Counted from the stretch's first letter, positions 42,571 to 46,666 are shown. The stretch is DNA of 64,000 bases from Longimicrobiales bacterium (GCA_965208935.1 CBDBPR010000003.1:91877-155876), one strand, 5' to 3'. Numbers and translations: made by a program. Notes: generated by a model from the sequence alone, not told the origin.

Positions 42571-42872
42571 CTTACGGCCGCACCGGAGCGTGAAAAAGAC
42601 ACGGTGGGTCGTTTCACACTTTGACCCTCCGGCGATTCACACGGCGGCCAGTACCTATCCGAAGGTGTCGCAACGTCTTGAGGTCCGGTCGCCCGACCGG
42701 GCGTTGCCGGACGGGCCGAGAGGGCGGGGCTGGGAGCGACCCCCCTCGCCGAGGGCTCGGTACGGGTTCGGGGGCAGGTGTGTTTGCACACCTCCCCCCC
42801 GACCCCCGGGGTCGCTCCCAGACCAGCGATCCCTGGCGGGAAGGCGGTTCGAGCGCCGCTTCGACGCGGCGG
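42571..42872 (+). repeat. R-element copy R1' (+ orientation)
   Basis: Closing stem GGGAGCGACC (42732-42741) / GGTCGCTCCC (42810-42819). Hairpins GCCGAGGGCTCGGT and AGGTGTGTTTGCACACCT. TCCCTGGCGGGAAGGC (42830-42845). Terminal hairpin CGCCGCTTCGACGCGGCG. Confidence 0.75.
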
Positions 42873-43103
42873 AGCACCCGTTCTCCGACCGGTCGGTCGT
42901 TGGACAGCCCTCCATCGCCGAGCAGGACGAGAGAACCCCGCAGGGTCACGATCCTCACCTCCCGGTCCCGCCGCGCATCCGAAGGTGACCGACCGCCTCC
43001 TCGCGAACGTGGAGGTGTGGATAGGTAGTTACCCCCGCTTCATCCGCTTCTGATGGTAGCAAGCCCGTAGGCTCCTTCACAACACACATGAGGAGGTTTC
43101 CCG

Positions 43104-43787
43104 ATGAAACGTCCATCGCTCGTTCTCTCCGCCGTCCTGTTCCTTTTCGCCACCGCCTCTCCGGCCTTGGCGCAGACCACGCTGTCGCTGACCGGCGGCC
43201 TGAACCGGACGACCATGACCGCCGACCCGCCCGACGGCATCGTATGGCGTTCCGAGTCCCTCACGAGAATGTCCGTCGGTTTGGCGGCGACCTTTCCGGC
43301 CTCGGAGCGTATCGGATTGCAGCTTGGCGTCGCGTACGCCCAGAAGGGCGGCAGATTGAGCGGACTGGACGGCGACATCCTCGTCACCACGGAAATCGCG
43401 CTGGACTATTTCGAGTTCTCCCTGCTGGCCGTGCCGACGTTTCCCTTGGCGTCATGGGACCACTCCGCCGTCCGGTTCTTCGCCGGTCCCACCTTGGCGA
43501 GCCGGATCGACTGCGACTTCGACGCGTCGGCCCGGCTCGGTCCGGAGCGGGTCACCGCCTCCGGCGGCTGCGACGCTGGTGGCCGCGACGAGGTCGAGGC
43601 CACGATGGACCTCGGGGTCGTCGTGGGCGGAGGCATCGCGGTCGGCGTGACGGAGCGGGCGAGCGTGAGCTTCGACCTGCTGTACACGCTCGGGCTCATT
43701 CCCATCGGAGAGGGAGACTCGTACTTGAGCGGACCGAGGCAACGTGTCCTGACGCTTCGGACGGGCGTGGCCCTTCCGATCGGATAG
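43104..43787 (+). CDS. Outer-membrane beta-barrel protein (OmpA-like barrel / OMP_b-brl type)
   Basis: GAGGAGG RBS. Signal MKRPSLVLSAVLFLFATASPALA|QT. The N-terminal TLSLTGGLNRTTM and the alternating strand pattern are typical of small porin-family barrels. Confidence 0.75.
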   Translation: MKRPSLVLSAVLFLFATASPALAQTTLSLTGGLNRTTMTADPPDGIVWRSESLTRMSVGLAATFPASERIGLQLGVAYAQKGGRLSGLDGDILVTTEIALDYFEFSLLAVPTFPLASWDHSAVRFFAGPTLASRIDCDFDASARLGPERVTASGGCDAGGRDEVEATMDLGVVVGGGIAVGVTERASVSFDLLYTLGLIPIGEGDSYLSGPRQRVLTLRTGVALPIG

Positions 43788-43899
43788 GGCTGTCGAGCGG
43801 CCACGGGTGATCGTCCATCACTCCGGGAACAAGCCCGGCGGCATCCTCGTGCTCGCCGGGATGGGCGGCCACCGCAACTTCAGCACGCATTGAGACAAG

Positions 43900-44175
43900 C
43901 GCCAGGTTGGACCGGGCCAAGCTGGCCGCAAGGGCCTTCCCGCAGGGATTGTTGGACTTGGGAGCGACCCCCGAGGGAGGGGGGGACGGGCTTGTCCGTC
44001 CCAACCCTCCCCGATGCCCGCACTGGGCATCGAAACAGGGAGGTCGCTCCCAGCCACGGCCTTGAGGCCCGGTTCGGCACCGACGAATCGGGAGGCCGTG
44101 GCCTAATCGCCAATCCGCCAGCAACTTGTGGCATATGGCGTGTGTCACGTCCGAGGGCGAATTTCGTGTCCGGCG
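43900..44175 (-). repeat. R-element copy R2' (inverted relative to R1')
   Basis: Closing stem GGGAGCGACC (43960-43969) / GGTCGCTCCC (44042-44051). Hairpins GGGACGGGCTTGTCCGTCCC and GATGCCCGCACTGGGCATC. CCTTCCCGCAGGGAT is the reverse complement of the conserved block. Hairpin GGCCAAGCTGGCC (43915-43927). Confidence 0.7.
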
Positions 44176-44232
44176 CCCCCCCACATCAAATACACATGTC
44201 CCGTTCGGCAACGGGGCAGCCGGATTCACCCA

Positions 44233-45203
44233 TCAGAACATCTTGCGCCGGAGCCGCTCCGACCGCCAAGTGCCCACCCGGTGCAACAGCCCCCGGCCGG
44301 ACTCCCGAAGAGCCCGATTCTGGAGTTCCGCCAGCCGCACGAGCCCGCCCCGGATGTCGCCGCACACCTCTCGGACCAGCCTCTCGTCCCTGCTGCGGAG
44401 AACATCCTTGATCCACTCGATCTCGCGGTCGATCTCCGGGTCGTAGTCGGACGAGCGCAGGCCCCTCGCCCAGTTGCCGAGCACGGTGTCCGCGCGGCTC
44501 GTCTCCTTCGAGCCCCGCCCGACGGCCACGATCTCGATCTTGCGTTCGCGGTCCCGGAGCATCGCCCACAACTCCCGGTGCGCCGCGCCCCAGGCGCGTA
44601 GCCCCCTCGCGGTCTCGTGACCGGGATCGACATGGACGAAGACGGCGCGCTTCGCGTCCAGCGCGACCGGAAGCCCGAGATGAAAGTGCCGCCGGATGTT
44701 CCCGGCCGCGCCCCGGTAGGTCCGCTGGGGCAGAACCCGGCGCTCGATCCCGAGCGCCTCGAACGCGGCGACCTTCTCGGCCTCGGTCGGCAGCCACGGC
44801 AGGCGGGGATGGTCGAGCACGTAGTCGAGTGCCAGCAGCCGTCGCATCAGCACGTCGCGGGAGGTGATCCGGCGACGCCGATGGAACTCCCCGGCTCCGA
44901 GCGCCCGGAACACTCTGCGGGCTTGGATGCGGCACACGCGGCCGATCTTGCGGACGCCGGCCGGGGCCTCCTCGACGGCCAAGCCCTGCGCGACGAGGGA
45001 GTGGACGGCGCGCCGCACCTTCTCCGGGTGGCAACCCAGGAAACTCGTCCACTGCAAGCGGGTGAAGACGCCGCCGTGAAGGCAGGCCAATGCGATCCAC
45101 TCGGCCCGGCGTCCGGTCCAGCCGAACGCCTCCAGAGCTTTCTCGCGTCCCTTGAGATGGGCGATCAGCGCGGCCTCCCGTGGTTGAAGGACCGGGCGCG
45201 CAT
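44233..45203 (-). pseudogene. Frameshifted (or mis-assembled) gene for a winged-helix protein, possibly replication-relaxation-like
   Basis: A strong start (GGAAGGAG + 5 nt + ATG at 45203) opens a 12-codon ORF ending at the TGA at 45165. The long frame (open from 45216 to 44233) has no ATG/GTG before the TTG at 45090, yet reads sensibly upstream (REAALIAHLKGREKALEAFGWTGRRAEWIALACLHGG). The family call is weak (wHTH-like VFTRLQWTSFLG...VRRAVHSLVAQGLAVEE). Confidence 0.45.
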
Positions 45204-45444
45204 GTGGGCTCCTTCCTCACGCTGCGTGTCACTCCCGTTGGAATCGGGAGAGAGCCCTCGGGCCGCGTCAAGCCGCGCCCGCGAGCGGATGTCCCAAGCG
45301 GTCCAGCCGGATCCCGGATGGAGATCGGCCTTCGGCCACAGTCCCTCCGTCGCGTTCCGGGGGTGTCGGCACTGGTCAAGACGCCCCTTCCGGGCGAAGT
45401 TTCGTTCGCGCAGATCGTGCAGTCCGTCAGTCGAGAGGAATCGA

Positions 45445-46605
45445 ATGATGGCACGCACGAGAAGAAGCCGTCGGAGCTACGGCGCCGGCGAGTGGGGCCG
45501 GAACCGCGTGAGGGTATTTCCCGACCCGAAAACCGGCCTGTTCCAGATAGAGTGGCGCGAGAACGGCCGAAGGCTGAGTCGGTCGCTCAAACACCGCGAC
45601 TGGAGGCGCGCGAAGAGGCAGGCGGACGAGTTTGCCGCCGGGTTCATCGACGCGCCGAACGGCAAGGCGGAGGCCAAGCCCGAGCCGCTCACGCTGGACA
45701 AGCTGTTTGAAATCTACGGTGAAGAGGTGACGCCCACGAAGGCGGAGGCGTCCCAGCGGTCCGACCGGGCCGCGACGAGGATGTTCCTCCGGTTCTTCGG
45801 ACGGGACCGGAGTCCCGAGACGCTATCCCAGCGCGATTGGGACCGGTTCATCCGGGCACGTCGCTCGGGCAGGATCGGGCCAAGCGGAAGGCCGGTGTCC
45901 GACCGCACCATCGAGCACGACCTGAAGTTCCTGATCGCCGTGCTCAACTGGGCGTCCAAGTCCCGGGACGAGCGGGGCAAGCTCCTGCTCGCGTCGAATC
46001 CGCTGAGGGGTCTCAGAACGCCCACGGAGAAGAACCCCACGCGGGTGGTGTTGTCCGAGGAGGAGTACCAGGCGCTTCTCGGGGTGTCCCAAGAGGTGGA
46101 CTGGCGCTTCCGCGTCGCGCTCGTGCTCGCCCACGAGACGGGCCACCGAATCGGGGCCATCCGTCACCTTCGATGGTCTGACATCGACCTCGAAGACGGG
46201 GTGGTGCGGTGGCGCGCGGAGCACGAGAAGACCGGATACGAGCACCGGACGCCGGTGACGGCCGAAGCGTTGGCCGCCCTGCACGAGGCGCGGAAGAGGA
46301 GTTCCGGGCATGAGCACGCTCCGGTGCTGCCCGCGCCGACGGATGGCTCCAAGTGCGCCGGCCGGTCGTTGGTGCGAACTTGGTGGTACAGAGCCCAGAC
46401 GCTGGCGGGGCTCGAACCGAAGCGCGGGAGAGGCTGGCACTCGCTGAGGCGGAAGTTCGCTTCCGACCTCATGGATCAGCCGCTCAAGGTGCTCTGCGAG
46501 TTGGGCGGTTGGAAGACCGCCAAGACGGTGCTTGAGTGCTACCAGCGAGCCGACGAGGGACAGCTTCGGAAGGCACTGGACGCCCGCCGGAGACCTCGAA
46601 GCTGA
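45445..46605 (+). CDS. Tyrosine recombinase / phage-type integrase (copy 2)
   Basis: ATGATG at 45445 follows GAGAGGA. LAHETGHRIGAIRHLRW, GWHSLRRKFASDL and GGWKTAKTVLECY. The upstream 276 aa of track ORF 44617..46605 are antisense to the 44233-45203 gene and were not used. Confidence 0.9.
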   Translation: MMARTRRSRRSYGAGEWGRNRVRVFPDPKTGLFQIEWRENGRRLSRSLKHRDWRRAKRQADEFAAGFIDAPNGKAEAKPEPLTLDKLFEIYGEEVTPTKAEASQRSDRAATRMFLRFFGRDRSPETLSQRDWDRFIRARRSGRIGPSGRPVSDRTIEHDLKFLIAVLNWASKSRDERGKLLLASNPLRGLRTPTEKNPTRVVLSEEEYQALLGVSQEVDWRFRVALVLAHETGHRIGAIRHLRWSDIDLEDGVVRWRAEHEKTGYEHRTPVTAEALAALHEARKRSSGHEHAPVLPAPTDGSKCAGRSLVRTWWYRAQTLAGLEPKRGRGWHSLRRKFASDLMDQPLKVLCELGGWKTAKTVLECYQRADEGQLRKALDARRRPRS

Positions 46606-46617
46606 GGCTCATGAATC

Positions 46618-46666
46618 AGCGGGAGTCAAACAGCGAGAATCGAGCTTACCAATCCCGTAAGCTCAA
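46618..46666 (+). other. Conserved segment downstream of integrase 2 (paralog of 9496-9546)
   Basis: See the entry for 9496-9546. This copy overlaps the last codons of the convergent DUF222-HNH gene. Confidence 0.5.

Follow-up and report, generated by a model that had tools for sequence, protein, structure and literature searches.

Small integrase-carrying mobile elements of Longimicrobiales hold variable genes between facing structured repeats

Two modules in a 64,000-nucleotide (nt) stretch of DNA from a Longimicrobiales bacterium (GCA_965208935.1 CBDBPR010000003.1:91877-155876) belong to a hitherto undescribed family of small mobile DNA units that carry an integrase and occur in multiple copies in sponge-type Gemmatimonadota. 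The whole stretch is called the window here, and positions are counted from its first letter. In each module, a gene for an outer-membrane protein (OMP) lies between two facing copies of a structured repeat, which we call X, and is followed by a tyrosine integrase gene and a conserved non-coding tail; module A occupies 6883-9620 and module B 42563-46716. The same frame recurs elsewhere with other genes or with nothing between the repeats, homology between copies breaks at the tips of X, and whole units are found in unrelated surroundings. We propose that both modules represent a miniature integrative mobile element in which the facing X copies define a slot and the X tips are the junctions of cargo exchange, a reading for which we see about as much reason to believe as to doubt. 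No description of this X/integrase element was found in the literature searched.

Results

Two modules with one frame and different cargo

A sequence-only reading of the window had claimed that module B repeats the layout of module A, and blastn bears this out; all the parts it named lie where it placed them. The left repeats align (6881-7197 with 42560-42877, 76.7% over 322 nt, E 1.6e-59), as do the right inverted repeats (7845-7988 with 43933-44079, 76.5%, E 5.6e-21) and the segments that hold the paralogous integrases (8280-9545 with 45401-46666, 77.3% over 1271 nt). The common parts, including the conserved ~110-nt tail, are 76-77% identical as DNA, the integrases IntA and IntB are 78% identical, and the window as a whole has 68% G+C.

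The inverted relation between the repeats of one module proved stronger than had been claimed. Direct comparison aligns 42686-42845, reverse-complemented, with 43934-44098 (70% over 167 nt, E 1.5e-10), and a profile of the left element extends across the right copies of module B (44221-43930, profile positions 10-294 of ~340, E 1.6e-21) and module A (8120-7825, E 3.5e-11), so that each module is bracketed by two full, facing copies of X, a relation far above what chance would give. The window holds four X copies, all within the two modules. In the left X of module B, the main stem pairs GGGAGCGACCCC (42732-42743) with GGGGTCGCTCCC (42808-42819), and a tip mini-hairpin, TCCCTGGCGGGA, lies at 42830-42841; the tip of the right X (GGCCTTCCCGC on the + strand) is turned towards the slot. 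Two boundaries needed correction: the right repeat measures ~277 nt, and the module, previously ended at 46666, continues to ~46716, its tail carrying two GCGGGA-type direct repeats plus CCCGTAAG and ending ...CGTAACGTTAGGG. Module B also contains a gene that is absent both from module A and from the earlier description, ORF285 (an open reading frame, ORF, encoding 285 residues), with 25 nt between its stop codon and the 5' end of the right X. The coordinates are collected in Table 1, where, as in the text, L numbers are our handles for other loci.

The two cargo proteins, OMP-A and OMP-B, were said to lack similarity, and neither BLASTP (E = 12) nor a profile-profile comparison with hhalign (probability 0.45%) detects a relation. 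OMP-B matches the Pfam family OMP_b-brl_2 (E 2.2e-8), and the structural model of OMP-A consists of a signal helix and eight antiparallel beta strands, which makes it reasonable to call both outer-membrane barrels.

At the left junction of module B, a perfect 10-bp hairpin (arms GCCGGAGCGC, 42537-42546, and GCGCTCCGGC, 42562-42571) is present as the sequence-only reading described it and folds better than shuffled sequences (z = -2.64, 2/200), but it has no equivalent in six homologous left ends, and we therefore treat it as copy-specific or as part of the insertion site. No tRNA or tmRNA gene was found in the 64-kb window, and Rfam 15 gave no gathering-score match there, with noise only in 42400-44300 at E <= 10.

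Table 1. Features of modules A and B in the window (pLDDT, predicted local distance difference test)
Feature	Position	Strand	Evidence or remark
Left X element, module A (L-type)	6883..7214	+	nhmmer E 5.1e-89
OMP-A, 144 aa, module A cargo	7339..7773	+	predicted eight-stranded beta-barrel, pLDDT 83; 269 homologues
Right X element, module A (R-type)	7844..8114	-	nhmmer; covariance model 120 bits
Integrase IntA (8326-9486) plus tail	8326..9620	+	L052 matches 7846-9620 at 87.6%
Hairpin, 10-bp perfect	42537..42571		3' arm coincides with the first 10 nt of the module B left X
Left X element, module B (L-type, ~336 nt)	42563..42898	+	nhmmer E 6.9e-85; covariance-model match 42719-42852, 71 bits; covariation
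Cargo slot, module B (1033 nt)	42899..43931	+	contains OMP-B, 43104-43787, 227 aa
Right X element, module B (R-type, ~277 nt)	43932..44208	-	nhmmer; covariance-model match 43927-44064, 125 bits; homology breakpoint 43933
ORF285, 285 aa, winged-helix protein	44233..45090	-	between right X and integrase of module B
Tyrosine integrase IntB, 386 aa	45445..46605	+	Pfam PF00589 (Phage_integrase) E 4e-18; PHROG 1 integrase E 5e-49
Conserved non-coding tail, right end of module B	46606..46716	+	alignment of 86 tails; homology with L001 and L004 stops at 46716

X is a family of folded, mostly convergent repeats

X was surveyed in Longimicrobiales genomes and metagenomes, using the 80 best integrase loci together with 121 metagenome loci found by the pattern of the X main stem, and 194 copies were annotated. 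They comprise an L-type, with a ~45-nt 3' extension, and an R-type without it. The X next to an integrase is always R-type and directed away from the integrase (31 loci), the distal copy being of either type. Among 62 neighbouring pairs, 47 are convergent, 10 tandem and 5 divergent. Gaps between convergent copies either cluster at 58-62 nt and 106-110 nt, which we regard as empty slots, or span 0.2-2.1 kb, and the sequence of the short gaps is kept between loci whose flanks are unrelated.

Compensatory variants of the main stem (GGTAGC/GCTACC, AGTGAC/GTCACT, AGAGAC/GTCTCT, CGGAGC/GCTCCG) and of the tip hairpin TCCC-NNN-GGGA (TCCG/CGGA or TCCT/AGGA) point to a conserved fold, and the inner hairpins of the L and R types are wholly different yet self-complementary sequences. 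A covariance model of the X core, built on a hand-drawn structure of four helices and 33 pairs, found and aligned 69 copies. In this alignment, which is itself fitted to the model, 83.5% of cells over the modelled pairs are paired, compared with 38-55% after a shift of the partners by 1-3 columns; double changes are found in 162 cells against 21-45 in the shifted controls, and the covariation score is 0.20 against 0.03-0.06, with none of 500 shuffles attaining the observed values. RNAalifold on MAFFT alignments recovered the main stem alone, and a column-wise helix search on hidden Markov model alignments returned mostly spurious short helices.

Several other readings of sequences within X were discarded. 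Open reading frames cross it, but their frames differ between modules A and B, with 1-2-nt indels, and a protein-coding function was rejected. The 5' triple repeat (GTGAA / TTCAC / TTCAC) was rejected as a set of integrase arm sites, since its sequence differs between the left and right copies of one module. A CAATCCC core common to the tail and the X tip is present in A and B, fails to hold or co-vary elsewhere, and was dropped; the motif GCGGGAA has 7 matches against 1.8 expected and is uninformative, four of them being the X tips themselves.

X is chiefly the 3' partner of ORF285

The repeats had been taken for simple recombination sites; instead they are ~300-nt structured elements that chiefly accompany the 3' end of ORF285 and occur also without an integrase. 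In all 40 ORF285 homologues whose C-terminus lies on the contig, a co-oriented X begins <=120 nt from the stop codon, its position being fixed at 20-40 nt after the stop, and distant homologues from soil and other metagenomes (26-41% identical) have the same stem sequence 177-281 nt past theirs. The protein family is large, with 899 close homologues and 2185 clusters at 50% identity in a profile search, and it has no family in Pfam, NCBIfam, PHROGs or PADLOC and no sequence match in PDB; the structural model (pLDDT 71) finds Foldseek matches only through an N-terminal MarR-like winged helix. Units made of ORF285 and X exist alone and beside an insertion sequence (IS) of the IS3 type, with variable DNA past the X tip, and in L063 two complete units stand head to head, one of them a pseudogene.

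The most likely role of X is that of a site which ORF285 would bind or process, for example one resembling a transfer or replication origin. In the X-less loci L006, L049 and L057, a MobA/VirD2-type gene lies upstream of the integrase, in place of X or ORF285, and by positional equivalence only, ORF285 and X could thus form a transfer- or replication-origin module.

Two further observations concern this gene family. The proteins P0269, P0273 and P0320 join ORF285-family domains, by C-terminal fusion, to anti-restriction domains of the ArdC type (ArdcN + MPTase-PolyVal), which are those of conjugative plasmids, and DUF5128/NHL-like genes also adjoin ORF285 units in L207-L211.

The slot holds diverse, intact genes

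Slot cargo is diverse and not confined to OMPs. OMP-B itself recurs in L001 (95%), L018 (83%) and L014, a 29% identical paralogue lies on the opposite strand in L004, and OMP-A and its relatives occupy slots in L092, L121, L085 and L020. Elsewhere the slot contains the Thoeris TIR protein ThsB (L044; PADLOC 3.9e-65, Pfam 1.2e-25), an HU/IHF protein (L050, L038, L039, L046 and L080; Pfam 6.4e-34), a MobA/VirD2 relaxase domain (L058; 2.3e-13), an IS110 transposase (L013), a lipoprotein (L038) or an unannotated 642-aa protein (L133), and homologues of a 215-aa repeat protein of the window are cargo in L127, L133 and L149. The cargo ORFs are intact and encode signal peptides or full domains.

The window gene for that repeat protein (6206-6853, + strand) contains an internal ~120-nt tandem duplication (6261-6381 / 6498-6618) and has no match in the domain and family libraries. 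It ends 30 nt ahead of the left X of module A, the position held elsewhere by ORF285, and homologues also precede an L-type X in L007 and L016. OMP-A homologues (58% identical) were seen in L202-L205, which are metagenome-assembled genomes (MAGs) assigned to other phyla (Rhodothermaceae and other bins), where they adjoin a TonB-dependent receptor, without integrase or X; this cargo family is therefore also an ordinary chromosomal gene, or has crossed phyla.

Copies diverge at the X tips, and whole units move

Comparisons between loci place the limits of homology at the tips of X. L004 matches the window from 43933 to 46716 at 92%, a block made up of right repeat, integrase and tail; leftward of 43933 there is no match, and another porin-like gene takes the place of OMP-B. 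L001 matches 42562-44069, which contains the left repeat, OMP-B and the right repeat, and 45401-46716, with no ORF285 segment and with unrelated flanks. In L052, homology to module A begins at 7846 and runs to 9620. The segment common to L031 and L035 (5527-7265) has its breakpoint at the X tip, at 5527, and an IS3-ORF285-X block common to L206 and L208 stops 4 nt past the tip (8232). When ~30 X copies with different neighbours are aligned at the tip, all diverge at ...|GGCCTTCCCGC, with the junction at GGCC.

Further breakpoints fall ~50 nt upstream of the integrase start. The right end of the unit lies ~110 nt past the integrase stop codon, many tails finishing ...ACGTCAGGG, and unit ends share short TTAC/TTRG-like matches only. 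L008 and L012, which come from different species representatives, have 2356 bp in common at 100% with unrelated DNA on both sides, and L038 and L039 have 2403 bp at 99.2%; the occurrence of whole units at 99-100% identity in unrelated flanks indicates that the units move. None of 59 loci lies at a tRNA gene, and one is 70 nt from a tRNA-SeC.

Three side observations concern unit ends and gains of DNA. In some subfamilies the ends of integrase units adjoin a REP-like palindrome, GCTGGCTTGAGCCAC-N6-GTGGCTCAAGCCAGC and then YTAC, which is a possible preferred insertion target; it was seen in L008 (4875-4910), L038 (4866-4900), L039, L046 (~530), L049 (~7270), L103 and L023 (~4490), usually at the left end of the unit and in L049 at the tail end. 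A second conserved repeat of ~100 nt, AGCCAGCATACTCC..GGGGCCACACTCCGTG.GTCCCCTGCGGAGGCTGGCGGGGGGCCGTGCCCCCTCTGACCCC, stands at the left end of many units in which an L-type X is missing from that end (L038 4894-4990 and at least 20 other loci, for example L004 224, L029 2426, L030 5210, L036 4905, L040 4002, L060 3948 and L072 3858). Finally, L007 and L016, otherwise 98.6% identical, differ by a 1.55-kb insertion in L007 (4375-5925) between the R-type X and the integrase, which is not ORF285.

The integrase belongs with those of conjugative or mobilisable elements

IntB has >2700 homologues, the top 120 of which are 78-96% identical, with several on one chromosome; a scan of species-representative genomes confirmed at least 541 integrase loci, again several per chromosome. 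The best 80 loci lie in Gemmatimonadota/Longimicrobiales bins, many of sponge type, or in plainly mislabelled bins. Matches in PDB are weak and are to the catalytic domains of XerA and lambda Int. In L206 (1-5350), a gene set of TraG, a VirB11-type ATPase, ArdC and an excisionase-like helix-turn-helix protein ends with an integrase that shares 79% identity with IntB. The modules of the window contain no transfer genes; such genes lie near related integrases in L206, L058, L006, L049 and L057. L206 and the MobA/VirD2 contexts place the family among the integrases of conjugative or mobilisable elements. The tail in L206 is followed by a ~40-nt stretch that resembles the reverse complement of a tRNA 3' half and is cut by an IS3; ARAGORN calls no tRNA there.

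Neighbourhood of the modules

Directly right of module B lies a DUF222/HNH endonuclease gene (46663-47796, - strand), bracketed by 48-nt inverted repeats (46739-46786 / 48140-48187, 83% complementary). It overlaps the module B tail by its last ~18 codons, and the insertion may therefore have changed its 3' end. On either side of module B and the HNH gene lies a PadR-family regulator gene, the two being oppositely oriented (41900-42427, - strand, and 48517-49176, + strand). Further to the left, divergent paralogues of 436 and 394 aa (37834-39144, - strand, and 39855-41039, + strand) have the motif CVIDS-E-RVVC in common and yield a 139-nt inverted repeat (37948-38086 / 40736-40874). Near the start of the window, a gene for a 1904-aa protein (56-5770, + strand) combines leucine-rich-repeat and zinc-metalloprotease-like HExxH blocks, two of each, with an apparent internal duplication (73-nt repeat, 1743-1815 / 4653-4725).

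Discussion

The reading we propose assigns a constant core to the element, a tyrosine integrase with its ~110-nt tail, upstream of which an R-type X would be directed away and a second, facing X would usually be present. The 3' tips of X (...TCCC-NNN-GGGAAGGCC) would behave as recombination junctions, and the DNA between facing tips would be a slot whose content is exchanged among copies, which would account for OMP-B in module B, OMP-A in module A and the other genes, or none, of further copies. We infer that such exchange is site-specific, carried out by the integrase or ORF285, rather than a product of homologous recombination. The sequence-only reading had preferred a cassette system to a segmental duplication: simple duplication is refuted and a modular, cassette-like system is supported.

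Several points weigh against this reading. Sharp edges at the tips are expected of any repeated mobile terminus, and a circular cassette that simply integrates cannot give rise to facing, inverted sites. Neither an excised circle nor an empty target site or direct-repeat attachment (att) core was identified, an exact-protein look-up of the window proteins for empty sites having found nothing on record, so that integrase-driven movement is read from differences in context only. An X within 600 nt is missing from 69 of 106 integrase loci, and these loci, together with the ORF285-X units that have no integrase, show that the integrase and the X/ORF285 parts are separable and may not cooperate. 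Solved structures, moreover, match ORF285 only at its N-terminal winged helix.

A less probable explanation, which we nevertheless take seriously, is passive accretion with no dedicated cassette mechanism. X tips would then be the termini of ORF285-X or R-integrase-tail units that insert side by side, the cargo would be trapped or decayed passenger DNA, and the mosaic would reflect insertions nested in one another, deletions, and homologous recombination between the abundant repeats. The solitary and IS3-associated ORF285-X units with variable DNA past the tip speak for accretion, as do the head-to-head pair with its pseudogene in L063, the extra breakpoints upstream of the integrase start and the IS110 within one slot. 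It accounts poorly, however, for the intact state of the cargo genes and the strong preference for convergent orientation, and the two discrete lengths of empty slots, conserved in sequence between unrelated flanks, argue that the facing pair was inherited or moved as one designed unit.

Still less weight attaches to a bolder form of our proposal, which we offer only tentatively: X, with ORF285 and/or the integrase, may constitute a new gene-capture platform in which long, facing folded-DNA sites would delimit a slot for the site-specific insertion and exchange of genes for surface, defence and DNA-binding proteins, a functional analogue of the integron made of other parts and borne on a tiny self-mobile unit. 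Were the slot actively loaded, it would be a second, independently evolved bacterial way to collect and swap single genes, with an architecture unlike that of integrons, in abundant uncultured sponge-associated Gemmatimonadota.

It is unlikely that X acts as a transcribed, structured RNA, whether a cis-regulatory leader, a 3' untranslated region or a partner RNA of the integrase or ORF285. Four helices with strong covariation, the fixed distance past the ORF285 stop codon and the ~300-nt size would suit such an RNA, but G-T and A-C mismatches in the helices are about equal (109 and 118), fold energies are alike on both strands, the most conserved stems are almost purely Watson-Crick, and even a permissive Rfam search gave no match. 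Equal mismatches and strands that fold alike mean that X carries no RNA-strand signature. We favour instead a ~280-340-bp cis element that would act at the DNA level, its hairpins forming in single-stranded or extruded DNA.

An inversion switch, in which the adjacent tyrosine recombinase would flip the OMP gene between X arms for phase variation, is more improbable again. The geometry fits, with inverted repeats around a surface-protein gene beside a tyrosine recombinase, and the distant OMP-B paralogue of L004 is reversed. In the assemblies compared, however, the same cargo has the same orientation in every case (OMP-B in the window, L001, L018 and L014; OMP-A relatives in L092, L121, L085 and L020), many of the slots contain no gene or a non-surface one, the arms (~280 nt) are only ~70% identical, and the NCBIfam model NF007371 for tyrosine-type DNA invertases scores 12.8 bits (cut-off 222). 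An old segmental duplication with a diverged enclosed gene is scarcely credible: order is collinear and the common parts are ~77% identical, but the two OMPs are unrelated rather than divergent homologues, ORF285 is in B only, hundreds of further copies in other genomes include many X-flanked slots that are empty or hold other cargo, and identical units stand in unrelated flanks.

Read conservatively, the results give a large uncharacterised protein family, ORF285, a conserved cognate DNA hairpin, define a new ~300-nt structured repeat family, and describe a very compact integrase element still moving between species. They also offer a concrete explanation for paralogous surface-protein genes in repeated frames of these genomes.

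In functional terms, the likeness appears greatest to integrons and to pdif (dif) modules, in which one frame holds different genes. As in integrons, a tyrosine recombinase lies beside a platform with variable genes, empty platforms exist, and the repeated sites have a conserved secondary structure with compensatory changes. Integron attC sites recombine as folded single strands; for X, covariation shows folding, and neither strand is favoured. IntB, in contrast, is not of the IntI type (NCBIfam TIGR02249 integrase_gron, E 0.0072, 15.7 bits, cut-off 265). Integron cassettes each consist of an ORF followed by attC, all in the same orientation, and form a head-to-tail array, whereas X is ~300 nt long, strongly conserved in sequence and predominantly facing, usually with one slot and no array. 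The integrase here is co-directional with the slot and downstream of it, while intI is divergent from its array, and X belongs to a separate protein, ORF285. The pdif modules of Acinetobacter plasmids are bounded by 28-bp XerC/XerD sites that are served by host Xer proteins. They too enclose discrete cargo within inverted sites, the same brackets holding different cargo by context; here, by contrast, structured repeats of ~300 bp form the brackets, an integrase of their own lies next to them, and no dif-like site was seen, none having been looked for.

Other resemblances are more partial. REPIN/REP-RAYT systems likewise consist of inverted doublets of a palindromic repeat with a conserved short spacer (here 58-62 and 106-110 nt) that are linked to one dedicated protein gene, which the repeat itself flanks. 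X, however, is ten times longer, is not dispersed through intergenic DNA (4 copies/64 kb) and forms doublets that carry genes, and ORF285 has no HUH/Y1 family match. Invertible switches such as FimB/FimE, the Rci shufflon and Bacteroides invertons likewise have inverted repeats around a surface-protein gene beside a tyrosine recombinase; our elements differ in that no orientation polymorphism was found among the assemblies, in their long, diverged arms, and in slots that are empty or hold unrelated genes.

With integrative mobilisable and conjugative elements, the family has in common a phage-type integrase (PHROG 1, PF00589), discrete units in unrelated flanks, relatives that end a TraG-VirB11-ArdC set or follow a MobA/VirD2 gene when X is missing, and passengers that include defence (ThsB) and surface proteins. 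The units differ from such elements in being tiny (2.3-4.1 kb), multi-copy per chromosome and away from tRNA genes, with no att core repeats identified, and in their facing structured repeats, which are undescribed for elements of this kind. In carrying an integrase and in moving as discrete units, they agree with integrative elements.

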